A DNA stretch of 64,000 nucleotides from Escherichia coli (GTDB lineage Bacteria; Pseudomonadota; Gammaproteobacteria; Enterobacterales; Enterobacteriaceae): NCBI RefSeq assembly GCF_022846255.1, contig NZ_AP025682.1. One strand, given 5' to 3'. The number at the start of each line of letters is the position of its first letter. Within the stretch, counting starts at the first letter, position 1. Of the stretch, positions 11,356 to 51,362 are shown one piece after another. The translations under genes and the position numbers were made by a program. Under the pieces are notes generated by a model, which saw only the letters and a program-made list of their open reading frames with translations, had not been told where the DNA came from and searched no databases.

Positions 11356-11528
11356 AAAGTTCTTTTGCGCTGCATTGCTGGCGTAAATGTCAGCAATGCA
11401 GCATTTCCTCACGATTCTTCTTTGACGATCGCACTTTTTGCTCGTTATGATGGCGTCGCTAGCCTCAGTAAATCCTTACTCCGGCGGTGCGCAACCCGTG
11501 CGCGTGAACCACTATCTGAATGCTCATC

Positions 11529-31854: not shown

Positions 31855-31939
31855 ATAAAAAAACCTGCTGGTGAGGCAGGTTCTTTTATTTACTATTTTC
31901 AGGCCTAACACCACAGCCTGTGCAACATCGTGTTCCAAC
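31855..31939 (-). ncRNA. Candidate antitoxin small RNA (OrzO-like), about 85 nt
   Basis: Minus-strand sigma70-like promoter (-35 TTGCAA at 31969-31974, 17-nt spacer, -10 TATAAT as complement of 31946-31951); intrinsic terminator (7-bp stem 31862-31868/31876-31882 followed by a U-run on the minus strand); 5' segment complementary to 32086-32105 of the toxin 5' UTR. Confidence 0.5.
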
Positions 31940-40330: not shown

Positions 40331-42364
40331 TTATTTCACCTGATGACCCGGTTTAGCACCAGCATCCGGACTTAGCAGGAAAATATCTTTCCCGCCAGGA
40401 CCGGCAGCCATCACCATGCCTTCGGAGATACCGAAGCGCATTTTACGTGGTGCCAGGTTAGCCACCATAATGGTGTGACGACCAATTAGTGCCTGCGGAT
40501 CCGGGTAAGCAGAACGAATGCCGGAGAAGACATTGCGTTTTTCACCGCCGAGATCCAGCGTCAGGCGCAGCAGTTTGTCAGAACCTTCAACAAACTCTGC
40601 GTTTTCGATCAGCGCCACGCGCAGGTCAACTTTGGCGAAGTCGTCAAAGGTGATGGTTTCCTGAATCGGATCATCTGCCAGTGGGCCAGTAACTGGCGCG
40701 GCAGCTGCTTTCACTTCTTCTTTAGACGCTTCCACCAGTGCTTCAACCTGCTTCATATCGATGCGGTTATACAGCGCTTTGAACGGATTCACTTTGTGGC
40801 CCAGCAGCGGTTGCTGGATACCATCCCAGGTCAGTTCTGTATTGAGGAATGCTTCTGCGCGCTCGGTCAGTTTCGGCAGTACCGGCTTCAGGTAAGTCAT
40901 CAGCACGCGGAACAGGTTTATGCCCATTGAGCAAATTGCCTGCAGGTCGGCATCGCGGCCTTCCTGTTTTGCCACCACCCACGGAGCCTGTTCATCGACA
41001 TAGCGGTTAGCCAGATCAGCCAGCGCCATGATTTCGCGTACTGCTTTACCAAATTCGCGGCTTTCCCACGCCTCACCAATCACTTCAGCGGCATCAGTGA
41101 AGGTTTTGTACAACTGCGGGTCAGCCAGTTCGCTTGCCAGCACGCCGTCAAAACGCTTGTTGATAAAGCCCGCATTACGAGAGGCCAGGTTAACCACTTT
41201 GTTAACGATATCGGCATTCACGCGCTGAACGAAATCTTCCAGGTTGAGATCGATATCATCAATGCGCGAAGAGAGTTTCGCAGTGTAGTAGTAACGCAGG
41301 CTGTCGGCGTCAAAATGATTCAGCCAGGTGCTGGCCTTAATAAAGGTACCGCGAGACTTAGACATCTTCGCGCCGTTCACCGTCACATAGCCATGAACAA
41401 ACAGGTTGGTCGGCTTGCGGAAGTTGCTGCCTTCCAGCATTGCTGGCCAGAACAGGCTGTGGAAGTAAACAATATCTTTACCGATGAAGTGGTACAGCTC
41501 GGCGGTGGAGTCTTTCTTCCAGTATTCATCGAAGCTTACGCTGTCGCCGCGCTTGTCGCACAGATTCTTGAAAGAACCCATATAGCCAATCGGCGCATCC
41601 AGCCAGACGTAGAAATATTTACCCGGCGCGTTCGGAATTTCAAAACCGAAGTACGGCGCGTCGCGGGAGATATCCCATTGTTGCAGGCCAGATTCAAACC
41701 ACTCCTGCATTTTGTTTGCCACCTGCTCCTGCAACGCACCGCTGCGGGTCCATGCCTGCAGCATTTCGCTGAAAGAGGGCAGATCAAAGAAGAAGTGTTC
41801 AGAATCACGCATTACCGGGGTAGCGCCAGAAACCACCGATTTCGGCTCGATCAGTTCAGTCGGGCTGTAGGTCGCGCCGCAGACTTCGCAGTTATCGCCG
41901 TATTGATCCGGGGATTTACATTTCGGGCAGGTGCCTTTTACAAAACGGTCCGGCAGGAACATGCCTTTTTCCGGATCGTACAGCTGAGAGATGGTGCGGT
42001 TTTTAATAAAACCGTTTTCTTTCAGGCGAGAGTAGATAAGTTCTGACAACTGGCGGTTCTCTTCGCTGTGCGTCGAGTGATAGTTGTCATAGCTGATGTT
42101 AAAGCCTGCGAAATCAGTCTGATGCTCCTGACTCATTTCGCCAATCATCTGCTCCGGAGTGATACCAAGCTGCTGAGCTTTCAACATGATTGGTGTACCG
42201 TGGGCATCGTCGGCGCAGATGAAGTTGACCTCGTGGCCGCGCATTCGCTGGTAACGGACCCAGACATCAGCCTGGATGTGCTCCAGCATATGGCCGAGGT
42301 GGATTGAGCCGTTAGCGTACGGCAGTGCGCACGTCACCAGAATTTTCTTCGCGACTTGAGTCAT
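40331..42364 (-). CDS. metG: Methionyl-tRNA synthetase (677 aa)
   Basis: ORF track 40331..42373; start at [25 protein letters not shown] (HIGH motif); KMSKS present. Confidence 0.95.
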
Positions 42365-42495
42365 AGTAGGCATTACTTCTTAATAGTGAAAAGGGGTTAG
42401 ATAGTACCAAATGGGAAAATGTTAAGTAAGTACTTCTCTATATTCTTCAGGTAAACTATCAACTGATGGTTTATCTATACAAAAAAGGAGTCGGG

Positions 42496-43605
42496 ATGAA
42501 CGAACAATCCCAGGCCAAATCACCAGAAGCCTTGCGCGCAATGGTCGCCGGGACACTGGCCAATTTTCAGCACCCAACCCTGAAGCATAACCTCACAACG
42601 CTGAAAGCGTTGCACCATGTCGCCTGGATGGACGACACGCTGCATGTGGAACTGGTTATGCCATTCGTCTGGCATAGCGCGTTCGAAGAGTTAAAAGAGC
42701 AATGTAGCGCCGAACTGCTGCGCATCACCGGAGCGAAAGCTATCGACTGGAAACTGTCGCATAACATAGCCACTCTGAAACGCGTGAAGAATCAGCCGGG
42801 AATTAACGGCGTGAAGAACATTATCGCGGTCAGTTCCGGTAAAGGTGGCGTGGGTAAATCCTCCACGGCGGTAAACCTGGCGTTGGCACTGGCGGCGGAA
42901 GGGGCGAAAGTCGGCATTCTGGACGCCGATATCTACGGCCCATCAATCCCTACCATGCTGGGCGCAGAAAATCAGCGTCCAACTTCGCCGGACGGTACCC
43001 ATATGGCACCGATTATGTCTCATGGCCTGGCAACTAATTCAATTGGTTATCTGGTGACAGACGACAATGCGATGGTGTGGCGTGGCCCAATGGCGAGCAA
43101 GGCGTTAATGCAAATGTTGCAGGAAACCTTGTGGCCGGATCTCGACTATCTGGTGCTTGATATGCCGCCAGGTACCGGTGACATTCAATTGACATTGGCA
43201 CAAAACATTCCAGTAACCGGTGCAGTCGTGGTCACCACCCCGCAGGACATCGCGTTGATCGATGCGAAAAAAGGCATTGTGATGTTCGAGAAAGTCGAAG
43301 TTCCGGTGCTCGGTATTGTCGAGAACATGAGTGTGCATATTTGCAGTAACTGTGGTCACCATGAACCGATTTTCGGTACCGGTGGTGCAGAGAAACTGGC
43401 CGAGAAATACCACACGCAGCTGCTGGGGCAGATGCCGTTACACATCTCCTTACGTGAGGATCTCGATAAAGGCACGCCAACGGTTATCAGCCGTCCTGAG
43501 AGCGAATTTACCGCTATCTACCGCCAGCTGGCTGACCGCGTTGCAGCTCAGCTCTACTGGCAGGGTGAAGTCATTCCAGGCGAGATTTCCTTCCGCGCGG
43601 TCTGA
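42496..43605 (+). CDS. apbC: Fe-S cluster carrier P-loop NTPase ApbC/Mrp (369 aa)
   Basis: ORF track 42466..43605; start at MNEQSQAKSP; deviant Walker A SGKGGVGKSS; CxxC motif (CSNCGHH). Confidence 0.92.
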   Translation: MNEQSQAKSPEALRAMVAGTLANFQHPTLKHNLTTLKALHHVAWMDDTLHVELVMPFVWHSAFEELKEQCSAELLRITGAKAIDWKLSHNIATLKRVKNQPGINGVKNIIAVSSGKGGVGKSSTAVNLALALAAEGAKVGILDADIYGPSIPTMLGAENQRPTSPDGTHMAPIMSHGLATNSIGYLVTDDNAMVWRGPMASKALMQMLQETLWPDLDYLVLDMPPGTGDIQLTLAQNIPVTGAVVVTTPQDIALIDAKKGIVMFEKVEVPVLGIVENMSVHICSNCGHHEPIFGTGGAEKLAEKYHTQLLGQMPLHISLREDLDKGTPTVISRPESEFTAIYRQLADRVAAQLYWQGEVIPGEISFRAV

Positions 43606-43635
43606 CGCGTATTAACCATTCTGGTTATTCTTCAT

Positions 43636-43676
43636 ACACCGCAGAGATGTTACATTGATGCGGTGTATTTGTTTTT
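43636..43676 (+). terminator. Intrinsic terminator after apbC
   Basis: Stem acaccgca/tgcggtgt followed by atttgttttt. Confidence 0.55.
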
Positions 43677-43867
43677 GCAACATTAATGAACACTTATTTA
43701 ATGCTGCGAATATTCTGCGGACCTTCGTCCGAAACTCTACAAAGTCGATTGATCGTACCGGCGATGCTTCATTATCATCCTTCGTGGCTGTGTAGTGGAT
43801 GTACAGCTATAGTTTGTTATGCACTCATTCTTTCCAGGCATAACCTTTACTACAGGGATAACGTTCA

Positions 43868-44149
43868 ATGAATAAGTACTGGCTGTCAGGAATTATTTTT
43901 CTTGCCTATGGATTGGCTTCTCCCGCGTTCTCTTCAGAAACTGCCACATTAACGATTAATGGTAGGATCAGTCCCCCGACATGCAGTATGGCTATGGTTA
44001 ATGGTCAACCTCAACAGCATTGTGGTCAGTTAACGTATAATGTTGATACCCGTCATCAGGTTTCTTCGCCAGTTAAAGGTGTAACGACGGAAGTGATTGC
44101 TGCAGATAGCGATAGCAAACGTCGAATCGTGTTAAATCGCTACGATTAA
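43868..44149 (+). CDS. yehE: Small secreted protein YehE (93 aa)
   Basis: ORF track 43868..44149; signal peptide; upstream of the yeh fimbrial genes. Confidence 0.8.
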   Translation: MNKYWLSGIIFLAYGLASPAFSSETATLTINGRISPPTCSMAMVNGQPQQHCGQLTYNVDTRHQVSSPVKGVTTEVIAADSDSKRRIVLNRYD

Positions 44150-44179
44150 TTTGCCACCCTGGTTTAATTGGATTTAGAA

Positions 44180-44217
44180 AGCTTAAATCATTTACGTGAA
44201 TGATTTAAGCTTTTTTA
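44180..44217 (+). terminator. Intrinsic terminator after yehE
   Basis: Perfect 13-bp inverted repeat agcttaaatcatt / aatgatttaagct with 6-nt loop, followed by a T-run. Confidence 0.6.
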
Positions 44218-44440
44218 TTGATATTAATAATACCATTTATAGAAATCTACATTAATTAATAGATTTGATAAATATTTAATGTGCTTAAGTATTTGTTGTG
44301 TTTATATTGCAATGGTTAATTTGCTTTAAATCAATAAAACAATGTGTTTACATTGCGGCAACTTTTTGGGTGTGAGAAATTTGTTTCCAAGAGATACAGA
44401 CTCTTAACAACCAAAAATAGATTTTATTAAGGAGCATATT

Positions 44441-44983
44441 ATGAAACGTTCAATTATTGCTGCCGCTGTTTTTTCTTCTTTTTTTATGAGCGCTGGGGTA
44501 TTTGCCGCAGACGTTGATACCGGAACATTAACCATTAAAGGGAATATTGCAGAATCTCCGTGTAAATTCGAAGCAGGTGGCGATTCAGTAAGTATTAATA
44601 TGCCAACTGTACCAACTACGGTCTTTGAAGGTAAAGCTAAATACTCGACCTATGATGGTGCAGTCGGTGTAACCAGCAGCATGTTAAAAATTAGCTGTCC
44701 GAAAGAAGTTGCTGGTGTAAAACTCTCGTTGATTACCAACGATAAAATAACCGGAAACGATAAGGCGATAGCCAGTAGCAACGATACCGTGGGGTATTAT
44801 CTCTATTTAGGTGATAACAGCGATGTCCTGGATGTTTCTGCACCTTTCAACATCGAGAGTTATAAAACAGCGGACGGTCAATATGCTATTCCGTTTAAAG
44901 CAAAATACCTGAAGCTGACAGATAATTCAGTGCAATCAGGTGATGTGTTATCTTCTCTGGTTATGCGTGTGGCGCAGGATTAA
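44441..44983 (+). CDS. yehD: Fimbrial major subunit YehD (chaperone-usher pilus)
   Basis: ORF track 44441..44983; signal peptide; fimbrial subunit features; AT-rich upstream region. Confidence 0.88.
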   Translation: MKRSIIAAAVFSSFFMSAGVFAADVDTGTLTIKGNIAESPCKFEAGGDSVSINMPTVPTTVFEGKAKYSTYDGAVGVTSSMLKISCPKEVAGVKLSLITNDKITGNDKAIASSNDTVGYYLYLGDNSDVLDVSAPFNIESYKTADGQYAIPFKAKYLKLTDNSVQSGDVLSSLVMRVAQD

Positions 44984-45019
44984 TAAATAAAATTATAAAT
45001 TTTCCCAGGTAATAAACAT

Positions 45020-45050
45020 GGCCGCTATCCCCATGGCGGCCTTTTAATTT
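45020..45050 (+). terminator. Hairpin plus T-tract between yehD and yehC (partial terminator/attenuator)
   Basis: ggccgc...gcggcc stem followed by ttttaattt. Confidence 0.45.
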
Positions 45051-45063
45051 AAGAGGCATTAAG

Positions 45064-45738
45064 ATGAAAGGATTATTTGCTTTACTCATTTCTTCTATGG
45101 TCCTTCCTGCACATGCCGGTATTGTTATCTACGGGACGCGTATTATTTACCCGGCAGAAAATAAAGAAGTGATGGTGCAGTTGATGAATCAGGGAAACCG
45201 TTCTTCGCTGCTGCAGGCGTGGATTGATGATGGCGATACGTCGTTACCACCAGAAAAAATTCAGGTTCCTTTCATGTTAACGCCACCAGTGGCAAAAATA
45301 GGGGCAAATTCCGGGCAGCAAGTAAAAATTAAAATTATGCCGAATAAACTACCCACTAATAAAGAGAGTATTTTTTATCTGAATGTTCTGGATATTCCAC
45401 CAAATAGTCCAGAACAAGAAGGTAAGAATGCACTGAAGTTTGCGATGCAAAACAGAATTAAGTTGTTTTACCGGCCAGCGGGTATTGCTCCGGTAAATAA
45501 AGTGACCTTTAAAAAGTTACTGGTAAATCGCAGTGGCAATGGATTGGTGATAAAAAATGACTCAGCTAATTGGGTGACGATTTCGGATGTCAAAGCTAAT
45601 AATGTTAAAGTCAATTATGAAACTATTATGATTGCCCCCTTAGAAAGTCAGAGTGTTAATGTCAAAAGTAATAATGCAAATAACTGGCATCTGACCATTA
45701 TCGATGACCATGGCAATTATATTAGTGACAAAATTTAA
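45064..45738 (+). CDS. yehC: Periplasmic pilus chaperone YehC (PapD-like)
   Basis: ORF track 45064..45738; signal peptide; PapD-like N-terminus. Confidence 0.88.
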   Translation: MKGLFALLISSMVLPAHAGIVIYGTRIIYPAENKEVMVQLMNQGNRSSLLQAWIDDGDTSLPPEKIQVPFMLTPPVAKIGANSGQQVKIKIMPNKLPTNKESIFYLNVLDIPPNSPEQEGKNALKFAMQNRIKLFYRPAGIAPVNKVTFKKLLVNRSGNGLVIKNDSANWVTISDVKANNVKVNYETIMIAPLESQSVNVKSNNANNWHLTIIDDHGNYISDKI

Positions 45739-45753
45739 TTGCAGGAGCTGCCT

Positions 45754-48234
45754 ATGTTGAGAATGACCCCACTTGCATCAGCAATCGTAGCGTTATTGAT
45801 CGGCATTGAAGCTTATGCAGCTGAAGAAACCTTTGATACCCATTTCATGATAGGTGGAATGAAAGACCAGCAGGTTTCAAATATTCGTCTTGAAGATAAT
45901 CAGCCCTTGCCGGGGCAGTATGACATCGATATTTATGTCAATAAGCAATGGCGTGGGAAATATGAGATCTTTGTTAAAGACAACCCGCAAGAAACATGTT
46001 TATCAAGGGAAATGATCAAGCGGTTAGGCATTAATACCGATAGCTTTGCCAGCGGTAAGCAATGTTTAACATTTAAGCAACTTATTCAGGGCGGGAGCTA
46101 TACCTGGGATATCGGAGTTTTTCGTCTCGATTTCAGTGTCCCGCAGGCCTGGGTGGAAGAGCTGGAAAGTGGCTATGTTCCACCGGAAAACTGGGAGCGG
46201 GGTATTAATGCGTTTTATACCTCTTATTATGTGAGTCAGTATTACAGCGATTATAAAGCGTCCGGTAATAGCAAGAGTACATATGTACGTTTTAACAGCG
46301 GGTTAAATTTATTGGGGTGGCAACTGCATTCTGATGCCAGTTTCAGTAAAACAAATAACAATCCAGGGGGGTGGAAAAGCAATACCCTGTATCTGGAACG
46401 TGGATTTGCCCAACTTCTCGGCACGCTTCGTGTGGGTGATATGTACACATCAAGCGATATTTTTGATTCTGTTCGCTTCAGCGGTGTGCGGTTGTTTCGT
46501 GATATGCAGATGTTGCCTAACTCGAAACAAAATTTTACGCCACGGGTGCAGGGGATTGCTCAGAGTAACGCGCTGGTAACTATTGAACAGAATGGTTTTG
46601 TGGTTTATCAGAAAGAGGTTCCTCCTGGCCCGTTTGCGATTACAGATTTGCAGTTGGCCGGAGGTGGAGCAGATCTTGATATCAGCGTGAAAGAGGCGGA
46701 CGGTTCGGTAACCACCTATCTGGTGCCTTATGCAGCGGTACCAAATATGCTGCAACCCGGCGTGTCGAAATATGATTTTGCGGCGGGTCGTAGCCATATT
46801 GAAGGGGCGAGCAAACAAAGTGATTTTGTCCAGGCGGGTCATCAGTATGGTTTTAATAACTTATTAACGCTGTATGGTGGCTCGATGGTCGCGAATAATT
46901 ATTACGCGTTCACTTTGGGGACTGGCTGGAATACACGCATTGGTGCCATTTCCGTCGATGCCACGAAGTCGCATAGTAAACAAGACAACGGCGATGTGTT
47001 TGACGGGCAAAGTTATCAAATTGCCTACAACAAATTTGTGAGCCAAACGTCGACACGTTTTGGTCTGGCGGCCTGGCGTTATTCGTCGCGTGATTATCGG
47101 ACATTTAATGATCACGTATGGGCAAACAATAAAGATAATTATCGCCGTGATGAAAACGATATCTATGACATTGCCGATTATTACCAGAACGATTTTGGCC
47201 GTAAAAATAGCTTCTCTGCCAATATGAGTCAGTCATTGCCAGAAGGCTGGGGTTCTGTGTCCTTAAGTACGTTATGGCGAGATTACTGGGGGCGTAGCGG
47301 CAGCAGTAAGGATTATCAGTTGAGTTATTCCAACAACCTGCGAAGGATAAGCTATACCCTCGCGGCAAGCCATGCTTATGACGAGAATCATCATGAAGAG
47401 AAACGTTTTAATATTTTTATATCGATTCCCTTTGATTGGGGTGATGACGTTACGACGCCTCGTCGGCAAATATATATGTCTAACTCAACGACGTTTGATG
47501 ATCAGGGGGTTGCCTCAAATAATACGGGATTATCAGGAACCGTTGGAAGCCGGGATCAGTTTAACTATGGGGTCAACCTGAGTTATCAGTATCAGGGAAA
47601 TGAAACGACAGCTGGGGCGAATTTAACCTGGAACGCGCCGGTTGCGACAGTGAATGGCAGTTATAGTCAGTCGAGTGCTTATCGACAGGCTGGAGCCAGT
47701 GTTTCAGGGGGCATTGTCGCCTGGTCGGGTGGCGTTAATCTGGCAAACCGTCTTTCTGAAACGTTTGCTGTGATGAATGCGCCAGGAATTAAAGATGCTT
47801 ATGTCAATGGGCAAAAATATCGCACAACAAACCGTAATGGAGTGGTGGTATACGACGGAATGACACCTTATCGGGAAAATTACCTGATGTTGGATGTGTC
47901 ACAAAGCGATAGCGAAGCAGAATTACGTGGCAACCGGAAAATTGCCGCCCCTTATCGCGGCGCGGTTGTACTGGTTAATTTTGATACCGATCAGCGCAAG
48001 CCATGGTTTATAAAAGCATTAAGAGCGGATGGGCAACCATTAACGTTTGGTTATGAAGTCAATGATATCCATGGTCATAATATTGGTGTTGTCGGCCAGG
48101 GAAGCCAGTTATTTATTCGCACCAATGAAGTACCGCCATCGGTTAATGTGGCAATTGATAAGCAACAAGGGCTTTCATGCACAATCACCTTCGGTAAAGA
48201 GATTGATGAAAGTAAAAATTATATTTGCCAGTAA
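45754..48234 (+). CDS. yehB: Outer-membrane fimbrial usher YehB (826 aa)
   Basis: ORF track 45739..48234; start at MLRMTPLASAIVALL; size and composition typical of ushers. Confidence 0.9.
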   Translation: MLRMTPLASAIVALLIGIEAYAAEETFDTHFMIGGMKDQQVSNIRLEDNQPLPGQYDIDIYVNKQWRGKYEIFVKDNPQETCLSREMIKRLGINTDSFASGKQCLTFKQLIQGGSYTWDIGVFRLDFSVPQAWVEELESGYVPPENWERGINAFYTSYYVSQYYSDYKASGNSKSTYVRFNSGLNLLGWQLHSDASFSKTNNNPGGWKSNTLYLERGFAQLLGTLRVGDMYTSSDIFDSVRFSGVRLFRDMQMLPNSKQNFTPRVQGIAQSNALVTIEQNGFVVYQKEVPPGPFAITDLQLAGGGADLDISVKEADGSVTTYLVPYAAVPNMLQPGVSKYDFAAGRSHIEGASKQSDFVQAGHQYGFNNLLTLYGGSMVANNYYAFTLGTGWNTRIGAISVDATKSHSKQDNGDVFDGQSYQIAYNKFVSQTSTRFGLAAWRYSSRDYRTFNDHVWANNKDNYRRDENDIYDIADYYQNDFGRKNSFSANMSQSLPEGWGSVSLSTLWRDYWGRSGSSKDYQLSYSNNLRRISYTLAASHAYDENHHEEKRFNIFISIPFDWGDDVTTPRRQIYMSNSTTFDDQGVASNNTGLSGTVGSRDQFNYGVNLSYQYQGNETTAGANLTWNAPVATVNGSYSQSSAYRQAGASVSGGIVAWSGGVNLANRLSETFAVMNAPGIKDAYVNGQKYRTTNRNGVVVYDGMTPYRENYLMLDVSQSDSEAELRGNRKIAAPYRGAVVLVNFDTDQRKPWFIKALRADGQPLTFGYEVNDIHGHNIGVVGQGSQLFIRTNEVPPSVNVAIDKQQGLSCTITFGKEIDESKNYICQ

Positions 48235-48249
48235 TAGTCAGGTGGTTCT

Positions 48250-49284
48250 ATGGAAATTCGCATAATGCTATTTATAGTAATGATGATGGTTATGCCTGTG
48301 AGCTATGCGGCATGTTATAGTGAGTTATCTGTTCAGCACAATTTGGTTGTTCAGGGGGATTTTGCACTTACTCAAACACAAATGGCGACCTATGAGCATA
48401 ATTTTAATGATTCGTCATGCGTGAGTACAAATACTATCACACCTATGAGCCCGTCGGATATTATTGTTGGACTTTATAACGATACCATTAAATTAAATTT
48501 ACATTTTGAATGGACCAATAAAAACAACATTACGTTGTCAAATAATCAGACCAGTTTCACCAGTGGTTATTCGGTGACGGTGACACCTGCGGCCAGTAAT
48601 GCAAAAGTGAATGTTTCTGCGGGGGGCGGGGGTTCAGTGATGATTAATGGAGTTGCGACATTATCCAGTGCTTCATCATCGACACGCGGGAGTGCCGCAG
48701 TACAATTTCTACTGTGTTTATTAGGTGGTAAGTCATGGGATGCATGTGTAAATAGCTACAGAAATGCATTGGCACAAAATGCAGGTGTCTATTCCTTTAA
48801 TCTGACATTGTCATACAACCCGATAACCACAACCTGCAAACCGGACGATTTATTAATTACGTTAGAGAGTATTCCCGTTTCACAATTACCAGCCACAGGT
48901 AACAAAACAACAATAAATAGTAAAAAAGGGGATATTATTCTGCGTTGTAAAAATTTATTAGGTCAACAAAATCAAACATCACGGAAAATGCAGGTGTATT
49001 TATCAAGTTCTGATTTGTTAGCCGGCAGTAACACGATCCTGAAAGGTGCAGAAGATAATGGAGTCGGATTTATGCTTGAAAGCAATAGTTCGCCAGTCAC
49101 ATTTTTAAATATCACTGATAACAGCAAAGGGTACACAAATTTAAAAGAAATTGCGGCGAAGTCAAAAATTACAGATACAACGGTCTCAATTCCAGTAACT
49201 GCCAGTTACTATGTTTATGATAAAAATAAAGTAAAATCTGGTGCAATACAGGCAACCGCATTAATCAACGTGAAATACGACTAA
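48250..49284 (+). CDS. yehA: Fimbrial adhesin-like protein YehA (344 aa)
   Basis: ORF track 48250..49284; signal peptide; AT-rich, Asn/Ser/Thr-rich tip-adhesin-like protein. Confidence 0.85.
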   Translation: MEIRIMLFIVMMMVMPVSYAACYSELSVQHNLVVQGDFALTQTQMATYEHNFNDSSCVSTNTITPMSPSDIIVGLYNDTIKLNLHFEWTNKNNITLSNNQTSFTSGYSVTVTPAASNAKVNVSAGGGGSVMINGVATLSSASSSTRGSAAVQFLLCLLGGKSWDACVNSYRNALAQNAGVYSFNLTLSYNPITTTCKPDDLLITLESIPVSQLPATGNKTTINSKKGDIILRCKNLLGQQNQTSRKMQVYLSSSDLLAGSNTILKGAEDNGVGFMLESNSSPVTFLNITDNSKGYTNLKEIAAKSKITDTTVSIPVTASYYVYDKNKVKSGAIQATALINVKYD

Positions 49285-49340: not shown

Positions 49341-49367
49341 CCCCCTCATGATGAGGGGGCTTTTTTT
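49341..49367 (+). terminator. Intrinsic terminator after yehA
   Basis: ccccctcat-g-atgaggggg palindrome followed by c and seven T. Confidence 0.7.
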
Positions 49368-49922: not shown

Positions 49923-50747
49923 TTATCGCATTATGCCCATGAAGCCATGTACGCCCATATACACACCAACTAAGCCAATCAACAGACTGGAAAAATAGGG
50001 AGCGCGTTTAGCGAGAGTGTTAAATCCGCTCCAGCGTTTTGCGACCTGCTGAACGCTGATTGCTGCGCCAACGCCTACGGTGACAAGCGTTAACGCCAGG
50101 CCGAGGCTGAAACTGACGACCAGTGTTGCGCCCAGTGTCAGGGCTTTCAACTGAATGCAAATCAACAGCACGGTAATTGCTGCCGGGCAGGGGATAAGGC
50201 CACCGGTTAAGCCAAATAGCAAAATTTGCCAGTTGGTGACCTCTCTACCATCAAAGCGTCGTTTAATGTCATTGGCATGGGCTCGTGCATGGGCATCCTG
50301 ATACTCGCCATGTTCGTGATGGTGATGATGTCCATGGTCGTGGTGATCTTCGTGATCGTGGTGATGATGCTCATGATCATGCTCGTGCATATTCTCCAGC
50401 CAGTTGCGTTCGCCGCGCCAGGTACGCCAGAACATCCAGAACGCGGTGCTAATAATGATCACTGCGGAAATCAACTGGAGCCACGGTTCTGCTGATTGAG
50501 CAGTAAAGCGTTTGCTGATCACCATCCCGCCAAAGGCAATTAACCAGACCACTGCGGTATGCGAAATAGTTGCTGCCAGTCCGAGCATCACCGCCTGTTT
50601 AATGGTGCCTTTGATGGCGATGATAAACGCCGCCATCATCGCTTTTGAGTGCCCCGGTTCCAGGCCATGAAGCGCACCAAGTAAGATGGCGCTGGGGATG
50701 AAGAACCAGGCGTTTCCTTGCTGAAGAAGTGTTGTAAATTCGGTCAT
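49923..50747 (-). CDS. rcnA: Nickel/cobalt efflux protein RcnA (274 aa) with His-rich loop
   Basis: ORF track 49923..50747; His/Asp/Glu-rich loop HEHDHEHHHHDHEDHHDHGHHHHHEHGE. Confidence 0.92.
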   Translation of the reverse strand: MTEFTTLLQQGNAWFFIPSAILLGALHGLEPGHSKAMMAAFIIAIKGTIKQAVMLGLAATISHTAVVWLIAFGGMVISKRFTAQSAEPWLQLISAVIIISTAFWMFWRTWRGERNWLENMHEHDHEHHHHDHEDHHDHGHHHHHEHGEYQDAHARAHANDIKRRFDGREVTNWQILLFGLTGGLIPCPAAITVLLICIQLKALTLGATLVVSFSLGLALTLVTVGVGAAISVQQVAKRWSGFNTLAKRAPYFSSLLIGLVGVYMGVHGFMGIMR

Positions 50748-51140: not shown

Positions 51141-51235
51141 TTTATTAACGCGATTGTAAAACTGCCGTTTTTCCTCGTTTACAACGCGTGCGCTGGACAT
51201 TACCATCCTCCTTTGCGATTTATCATCGCAACCAA

Positions 51236-51362
51236 ACGACTCGGGGTGCCCTTCTGCGTGAAGGCTGAGAAATACCCGTATCACCTGATCTGGATAATGC
51301 CAGCGTAGGGAAGTCACGGACCACCAGGTCATTGCTTCTTCACGTTATGGCAGGAGCAAACT
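51236..51362 (+). ncRNA. TPP (THI-box) riboswitch in the thiM leader
   Basis: Conserved THI-element segments ggggtgccc...ctgagaaatacccgtatcacctgatctggataatgccagcgtaggga immediately upstream of the thiM start, with the SD caggagcaaa in the expression platform. Confidence 0.8.

Follow-up and report, generated by a model that had tools for sequence, protein, structure and literature searches.

Is the AT-rich fimbrial block that lies between apbC and rcnB in this Escherichia coli chromosome a recent foreign arrival that is kept silent as such, or is it an old resident? The question concerns positions 43868-49284 of a 64,000-nucleotide stretch of contig NZ_AP025682.1 (RefSeq assembly GCF_022846255.1), termed the window in the following, in which the small gene yehE is followed by the chaperone-usher genes yehD, yehC, yehB and yehA. 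An earlier account made from the letters alone (henceforth the sequence-only reading) had described the block as cryptic, H-NS-silenced and horizontally acquired. On the observed gene content, intactness, composition, hairpins, synteny and allele divergence, we conclude with high confidence that the block is the Yeh (Stc-type) fimbrial locus, that it comprises two transcription units (yehDCBA and yehE), that it is ancient and that, by homology to K-12, it is silenced by H-NS. Its identity, crypticity and silencing by H-NS are already known for K-12. New points of this analysis, beyond the sequence-only reading, are a conserved stem-loop after yehD, very divergent alleles within E. coli together with a recombinant strain, the pilin-like N-terminus of YehE and the linkage of yehE to the fimbrial operon.

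Five open reading frames (ORFs) make up the block, all on the plus strand and where the sequence-only reading had placed them:

43868-44149, plus strand: yehE, 93 amino acids (aa), DUF2574 (PF10836), Pfam E 1.9e-51
44441-44983, plus strand: yehD, major fimbrial subunit, 180 aa, Pfam Fimbrial 30.8 bits (cut-off 25.6)
45064-45738, plus strand: yehC, periplasmic PapD-like chaperone, 224 aa, PapD_N E 3.8e-41, PapD_C E 3.6e-9
45754-48234, plus strand: yehB, outer-membrane usher, 826 aa, PapC_N E 2.8e-35, Usher E 2.4e-193, PapC_C E 1.2e-8
48250-49284, plus strand: yehA, two-domain tip adhesin, 344 aa, Pfam Fimbrial at residues 184-344

A three-domain usher, a two-domain chaperone, a Fimbrial-domain pilin and a two-domain adhesin are present, and the complete pilus set claimed earlier is borne out by Pfam matches to major subunit, chaperone, usher and adhesin alike. 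The cluster with yehE upstream had also been recognized correctly: it is 96% identical to K-12 b2108-b2112, with order and neighbors alike. The gene order had, however, been given as yehABCD, and the order of transcription is yehD-yehC-yehB-yehA. K-12 carries the same genes (yehDCBA, b2111-b2108, and yehE, b2112) at the same lengths (93, 180, 224, 826 and 344 aa), with 94.7-97.2% nucleotide identity per gene, 98.3% aa identity in YehD and terminators at like positions. The program-made yehB ORF opens at TTG 45739; the start codon adopted here, ATG 45754, was read from the sequence, sits behind a GGAG ribosome-binding site and agrees with RefSeq. Orthology to the Yeh/Stc type is given by locus position (metG-apbC...rcnB) together with sequence, and Yeh has been placed in the gamma4 chaperone-usher class (PMC7098969, PMC3559732). 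Among NCBIfam models, yehB passes NF011763 (1743 bits, cut-off 933) and yehA passes NF011788 (675 bits, cut-off 395), while the best model for YehC, StcB, is reached at 347 bits and thus below its cut-off of 500, which makes YehC a relative of StcB outside that model's group. The N-terminal ~180 residues of YehA matched no known family in Pfam. Right behind the YehA signal sequence (48250-48320) stands a Cys that is invariant in 6/6 lineages compared (SYAAC, TWAGC and similar); this residue may mark a lipobox-like site, or else be the first partner in a disulfide.

A megablast search of 5,426 complete E. coli genomes with the yeh block showed how widely the locus is distributed. It is present in 5,423 of them, normally in one copy and always annotated yehE/D/C/B/A, and at least 80% of it is covered in 5224. 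The best nucleotide identity of the block is 98.4%, to B2-type strains, and K-12 stands at about 96%. Since the block is this widespread, K-12 is this similar and gene lengths and neighbors are identical, the 64-kb window around yeh is an ordinary segment of the E. coli chromosome. The block is flanked by metG (minus strand) and apbC/mrp (plus strand) on one side and by rcnB and rcnA (both minus strand), rcnR and thiMD on the other. The order metG-apbC-DUF2574-pilin-chaperone-usher-adhesin-rcnB recurs in two Citrobacter lineages (L005; L010/L011), in a relative (L006) and in Salmonella (L015), and the slot metG-apbC...rcnB-thiMD is occupied alike in Citrobacter and Salmonella. The Salmonella record is a poor, frameshift-ridden assembly in which gene order and the dip in GC content are clear.

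No tRNA gene was found at the locus, the RefSeq annotation holds no mobility gene there (integrase or insertion sequence), and a search for significant repeats flanking the block, direct repeats included, returned none. The marks of a genomic island, that is, patchy distribution, mobility genes and boundaries at tRNA genes or repeats, are absent. Wurpel et al. 2013 classed Yeh as a 'core-associated' fimbria that is intact in 92% of their strains (PMC3559732); they equated it with Salmonella Stc, described the same locus in Citrobacter and inferred that the ancestor shared by Escherichia and Salmonella already had it (PMC3559732). The horizontal acquisition proposed in the sequence-only reading has to be given up as a recent event in view of the genome counts, the synteny with Citrobacter and Salmonella and the lack of tRNA genes, mobility genes and repeats. 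The yeh block appears to be an ancient core resident of the metG-apbC/rcnB slot that has kept its AT bias across genera. Any acquisition would predate the Escherichia-Salmonella split, since the block is near-universal in E. coli and sits in the same slot in Citrobacter and Salmonella; exchange of alleles appears to be recent, gain of the locus does not. In some E. coli strains the locus is disrupted by IS1, ISApl1 or IS903 insertions. The syntenic usher gene of Citrobacter sp. CFNIH2 (L005, 10869-13369) is split or frameshifted into frames of 669 aa and 209 aa and is probably a pseudogene.

How does this age agree with the unusual base composition? The block holds 41.4% GC versus 50.7% and 52.1% in the flanking stretches, and a windowed run identified it as the GC minimum of the 64 kb, a level to which only 0.2% of 5.4-kb windows descend (mean 50.7%, standard deviation 2.9). 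GC content at third codon positions (GC3) is 0.34-0.44 in the yeh genes versus 0.57-0.61 in metG, apbC and rcnA. The yehE-yehD spacer, 291 bp in length, has 25.8% GC, which is matched by only 0.1% of 291-bp windows. Asn, Thr and Ser together account for 30.5% of YehA, twice their share in ApbC (15.3%), and for 21-25% of the other Yeh proteins. In these respects (an AT-rich block, an AT-rich region of ~290 bp upstream of yehD and an Asn/Thr/Ser-rich yehA) the sequence-only reading was accurate. Compared with their flanking genes, the O157 allele, two Citrobacter loci and those of Superficieibacter and one further lineage are likewise 5-13 points lower in GC, and the Salmonella yeh/stc locus (L015) shows the dip as well. 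Because the deficit was found at all syntenic loci compared, the AT bias is older than the split of these genera; it belongs to the locus itself and does not signal a recent arrival. It may have persisted because H-NS control was selected for, or because alleles were replaced repeatedly. Since a locus that goes back at least to the Escherichia-Salmonella split is strongly AT-biased, AT-richness alone is a poor proxy for recent horizontal transfer.

Within E. coli the locus falls into deeply divergent alleles. The O157:H7 allele (L002; ECs2914-ECs2918) has the same locus, five genes and gene lengths as the one studied here, yet nucleotide identity is 76% in yehE, 79% in yehD, 84% in yehC and 87% in yehB, and yehA is unalignable as DNA; its protein is 33% identical, effectively another adhesin specificity. 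By contrast, metG, apbC, rcnB and thiD are 97-98.5% identical between the two strains. Synonymous divergence (dS) from the O157:H7-type allele is 0.67-2.4 inside yeh versus 0.06-0.15 in the flanks. The ratio of nonsynonymous to synonymous divergence (dN/dS) stays at 0.05-0.31 even between alleles with saturated dS, and therefore both alleles consist of functional genes; none of the five genes is disrupted here, and each is under purifying selection. About 334 of the 5,426 genomes lie in the 80-90% identity band. Strain UTME-8 (L004) is a recombinant in which yehE and yehD are O157-like, yehC is intermediate and yehB and yehA are K-12-like, which suggests that the transition lies inside yehC. 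These data fit two allele types that are long-lived or introgressed and that exchange by homologous recombination. The parts that vary most between alleles are the exposed major subunit and the adhesin, a pattern consistent with diversifying or frequency-dependent selection on both. Deep alleles with a swapped adhesin and an operon-linked, pilin-like YehE provide testable handles on the variation and assembly of an understudied core fimbria.

The division into two transcription units is indicated by signals in and around the intergenic regions:

43634-43668, plus strand: likely apbC/mrp terminator, hairpin and T-run (inverted repeat I18), conserved, with compensatory changes in Citrobacter
43749-43778, plus strand: candidate yehE promoter, sigma-70-like, TTGATC, 18-nt spacer, TATCAT, 9/12 consensus matches
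44150-44440, plus strand: yehE-yehD spacer, 25.8% GC, counterpart of the K-12 H-NS-bound 'promoter island'
44176-44215, plus strand: yehE intrinsic terminator, perfect 18-bp AT-rich stem, 4-nt loop, then T-run
45020-45041, plus strand: GC-rich stem-loop between yehD and yehC, GGCCGCTAT CCCC ATGGCGGCC, then TTTTAATTT
49341-49367, plus strand: yehA/operon intrinsic terminator, hairpin CCCCCTCATGATGAGGGGG (49341-49359), then CTTTTTTT, between the convergent genes yehA and rcnB

The hairpins at 44176-44215 and 49341-49359 have the features of Rho-independent terminators and are conserved across lineages. For the former, the folding z-score is -5.5, with 0/200 shuffles folding equally well, and a hairpin with T-run occupies the same place behind the yehE stop codon in nine sequences from about six lineages. 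Its stems vary by compensated substitutions, being GCTTAAATCATT/AATGATTTAAGC here, GCCGAAATCATT/AATGATTTCGGC in K-12 and GCCAAAATCATT/AATGATTTTGGC in O157 (the difference from K-12 amounts to CTTA/TAAG here for CCGA/TCGG there), and are unrelated in more distant lineages. This hairpin terminates yehE itself and sets it apart from yehDCBA. The hairpin at 43634-43668 likely isolates the yeh region from upstream transcription. With a terminator behind yehE and a conserved hairpin behind apbC, yehE is most likely transcribed as a monocistronic unit. What marks the sigma-70-like site at 43749-43778 is its match to the consensus only; the region has no excess of such sites over shuffles.

At the other end, a T7 run stands behind the yehA hairpin; the combination CCCCCTC...GAGGGGG plus T7 is kept across E. 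coli alleles, and the stem is kept in Citrobacter as well. As the minus strand has no T-run, this terminator mainly serves yehA. The sequence-only reading had the block bracketed by two terminators. Both hairpins exist, but the left one lies inside the block, between yehE and yehD, and a third, the stem-loop at 45020-45041, had been overlooked. A GC-rich stem-loop fills the yehD-yehC spacer in 10/10 sequences compared, with six unrelated stem sequences, and it is probably a partial terminator or an mRNA 3'-end stabilizer that raises the major subunit over the assembly proteins.

What is known of K-12 bears on the silencing of the operon. There, yehDCBA is cryptic, belongs to the H-NS regulon according to two chromatin immunoprecipitation data sets and is 3.6-fold up upon SlyA overproduction (Curran et al. 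2017, PMC5797941); it has also been flagged as an island by GIST (PMC5797941). As cited in PMC5797941, Korea et al. 2010 found the operon functional under constitutive drive, repressed by H-NS and derepressed in hns. The yehD/yehE spacer is a K-12 promoter island that overlaps a predicted genomic island and an H-NS site (PMC3661553), and yehEDCBA lies inside a static extended protein occupancy domain (bioRxiv 10.1101/2024.06.20.599902). The block studied here has the AT content of an H-NS-silenced locus, with 41.4% versus 50.7% GC and 25.8% in the spacer, and four near-matches to the H-NS motif cluster in 44142-44274. The spacer is the putative regulatory region of yehDCBA. A consensus scan found no convincing yehD promoter in it; promoter-like sites in that scan were fewer than in shuffles (13 versus 20.7). 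By homology to K-12, we infer that the block is coated and silenced by H-NS/StpA in laboratory conditions, with SlyA as antagonist. The silencing named in the sequence-only reading is in this sense published for K-12 (PMC5797941, PMC3661553) and carried over here by homology. The label 'cryptic' likewise applies to K-12 (PMC5797941) but depends on strain and condition.

Several observations weigh against this reading of the block. In static lysogeny broth the O157:H7 yeh promoter was active, with higher activity at 28 C (Low 2006, as related in PMC7098969). Losing the occupancy domain alone does not induce yehDCBA (bioRxiv 10.1101/2024.06.20.599902), so H-NS is not the whole story. The H-NS binding and expression data come from K-12, to whose spacer the one here is just 89% identical. 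Matches to the H-NS motif, a weak proxy, show no excess over the whole window (77 versus 67 +/- 9 in shuffles). For the stem-loop after yehD, the analogy drawn with the pap and fim operons is tempered by a weak T-tract and a z-score of -1.2 in the window.

Could the block still be a recently acquired xenogeneic adhesin island that H-NS silences as foreign DNA? We regard this as improbable. Its GC content lies 9-12 points under the flanks with GC3 at about 0.35, composition-based predictors flag yeh in K-12 (GIST in PMC5797941; island column in PMC3661553), and the saturated dS toward the O157 type (0.7-2.4) could mean that foreign alleles were imported by homologous replacement. Yet the locus is one and the same in 5423/5426 complete E. 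coli genomes, shares the metG-apbC...rcnB-thiMD slot with Citrobacter and Salmonella, is accompanied by no tRNA gene, integrase, insertion sequence or flanking direct repeat, and was present in the Escherichia-Salmonella common ancestor (Wurpel 2013, PMC3559732), which leaves a recent gain of the locus largely refuted.

We give even less credence to the view that yeh is a decaying relic without present function, its AT-richness and crypticity stemming from relaxed selection and yehE being a leftover pilin fragment. Poor expression in K-12 laboratory culture (PMC5797941), the IS1, ISApl1 or IS903 disruptions in some strains, the yehC and yehA pseudogenes of Shigella flexneri (PMC6854044) and the frameshifted usher of Citrobacter CFNIH2 would all agree with decay, as would a YehE of half pilin size whose pilin likeness is confined to the N-terminus. 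Decay is, however, hard to reconcile with five intact ORFs that keep dN/dS at 0.05-0.31 even where dS between alleles is saturated, with the retention of at least 80% of the block in 5224/5426 genomes, with a terminator structure preserved through compensatory changes, and with a YehE whose length of 90-94 aa, Cys pair and C-terminal motif are kept although identity between genera is down to 30-55%. In addition, cloned operons produce fibers (PMC7098969).

If the block is an ancient, working Yeh locus, its operation can be proposed from family knowledge. The yehDCBA genes would encode a complete chaperone-usher pathway in which subunits pass the inner membrane via Sec, YehC caps each subunit by donor-strand complementation, and YehB, by donor-strand exchange, polymerizes YehD below YehA, the adhesin with two domains at the tip. 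The conserved stem-loop after yehD would probably keep yehD mRNA in excess over that of the assembly genes, and the strong terminator would close yehDCBA before rcnB. As a small, separately terminated gene, yehE would contribute a secreted product of 71 aa with a pilin-like N-terminus. H-NS/StpA may coat the block, whose AT-richness is most pronounced in the 26%-GC spacer before yehD, with SlyA acting as antagonist. Fiber formation and adhesion are presumed here from the K-12 and O157 literature: fiber assembly was reported for the K-12 operon (Korea 2010, as related in PMC5797941), and Elpers and Hensel 2020 (PMC7098969), who cloned the O157:H7 genes ECs2914-2918, obtained fimbriae of the gamma4 type that were thin and flexible, and HeLa adhesion of 377%.

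Compared with known systems, the locus is closest to that of K-12, from which it differs in having its nearest allele in B2-type strains and a more divergent yehE-yehD spacer. Salmonella enterica stcABCD shares the chromosomal slot, the gene order and the GC dip, but its proteins are only ~30-40% identical in the one poor, frameshift-ridden Salmonella record. Type 1 (fim) and P (pap) pili are assembled by the same logic from the same domain families; in them, too, the major subunit gene stands first with a stem-loop behind it, and the adhesin at the tip is built of two domains. Unlike these, yeh has no phase-variation switch, recombinase genes or dedicated regulator of the papB/papI type. Minor tip, adaptor or terminator subunits (FimF/G/I, PapH) are not annotated in yeh either, and the sole extra gene is yehE.

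What, then, is YehE? The protein carries a signal peptide, its N-terminus (TATLTINGRISPPTC) resembles that of pilins, two of its Cys are conserved, and its C-terminal IVLNRYD is invariant. Its match to PF10836 is full-length (profile positions 1-93 of 93, E 1.9e-51). An exhaustive profile search of 1.84 billion sequences yielded 29 representatives of DUF2574, nearly all of 87-94 aa or fragments, and no full-length pilin among the matches. The family is confined to Escherichia/Shigella, Citrobacter, Salmonella, Superficieibacter and some Klebsiella. Its members share a signal peptide, the pattern (D/E)TATLTI-G-v--pTC, a second Cys 13 residues on, GV-TE and a C-terminal R-I-L-(N/S)-YD; across genera, YehE is 30-55% identical, yet its length (90-94 aa), Cys pair and C-terminal motif are kept. 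The dN/dS of yehE is 0.19-0.22.

Comparison of profiles by hhalign aligned YehE with the YehD family at 95.7% probability over residues 1-42, signal peptide included. With the signal peptides removed, the probability is 83% (E 9e-6) over the first 20 mature residues. At the DNA level, the N-terminal segments of yehE and yehD share a 16-nt stretch with 14/16 identities (repeat D4). For the C-terminal halves of YehE and YehD, and for YehE and the YehA pilin domain, hhalign found no similarity; a resemblance of IVLNRYD to LINVKYD of YehA is anecdotal and was set aside. YehE has no Pfam Fimbrial (PF00419) match and does not contain a full pilin Ig-like domain (~150 aa), BLASTP matched YehE to neither YehD (E 5.8) nor YehA (E 23) at a significant level, and a profile search against solved structures gave chance-level matches only (FimG, E 0.93). 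An AlphaFold2 model from a 13-sequence alignment had a mean predicted local distance difference test score (pLDDT) of 51.8, too poor for a fold search, and a YehC-(G4S)6-YehE fusion (9 paired and 10 unpaired rows) reached a mean pLDDT of 54.1 with the chaperone itself badly modeled.

The genomic context ties yehE to fimbriae, as it adjoins a yeh-type four-gene operon in 6/7 informative contexts. One of these six is Superficieibacter, which carries yehE and a yeh-type operon at a different chromosomal site and in divergent orientation; Klebsiella (huaxiensis-type) has an orphan yehE copy beside an rRNA operon. With modest confidence, YehE may be regarded as a pilin-derived accessory protein of Yeh fimbriae. 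A more specific proposal, which we consider possible but rather doubtful, is that this pilin-derived mini-protein takes part in Yeh/Stc fimbrial biogenesis by capping, anchoring or throttling fiber growth. Such a role is filled elsewhere by the full-size PapH or FimI. YehE would consist of a donor-strand-like N-terminus and a small beta unit with a disulfide bond and, at its end, a penultimate Tyr; its N-terminal strand (TATLTINGRI..C, with alternating hydrophobic residues) would insert into the last YehD, or YehE would compete for YehC/YehB. The YehD likeness of the N-terminus without the signal peptide, operon linkage, purifying selection and an own conserved terminator speak for a mini-pilin, whereas the orphan Klebsiella copy beside an rRNA operon and a C-terminal part without homology to pilins speak against it. 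The cloned O157:H7 fragment ECs2914-2918 includes yehE, as its forward primer opens at the yehE start codon (PMC7098969).

Just upstream, a 61-aa ORF (43686-43871) that overlaps the yehE start by ATGA was considered as a gene and rejected; it is intact in the window, B2 strains and K-12, broken in O157 and absent in Citrobacter. On the same side of the block, the program-made ORFs of metG (40331-42373, 680 aa) and apbC (42466-43605, 379 aa) exceed the RefSeq proteins (677 and 369 aa); the excess is due solely to an upstream in-frame start codon and is not a real difference. On the other side, rcnA contains short tandem repeats rich in His codons (50320-50381), and the His-rich loop of RcnA is polymorphic in length: the protein has 274 aa both in the window and in K-12, while that of UTME-8 has 281 aa and that of O157:H7 has 285 aa.

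Elsewhere in the window, Rfam matches an OrzO-P type I antitoxin RNA at 31857-31932 on the minus strand (99.9 bits, gathering score 60), which implies a putative zor-orz toxin-antitoxin locus. Two further Rfam matches are a Peptidase-S11 RNA motif at 11444-11524 and, upstream of thiM, a TPP (thiamine pyrophosphate) riboswitch at 51232-51328, both on the plus strand.

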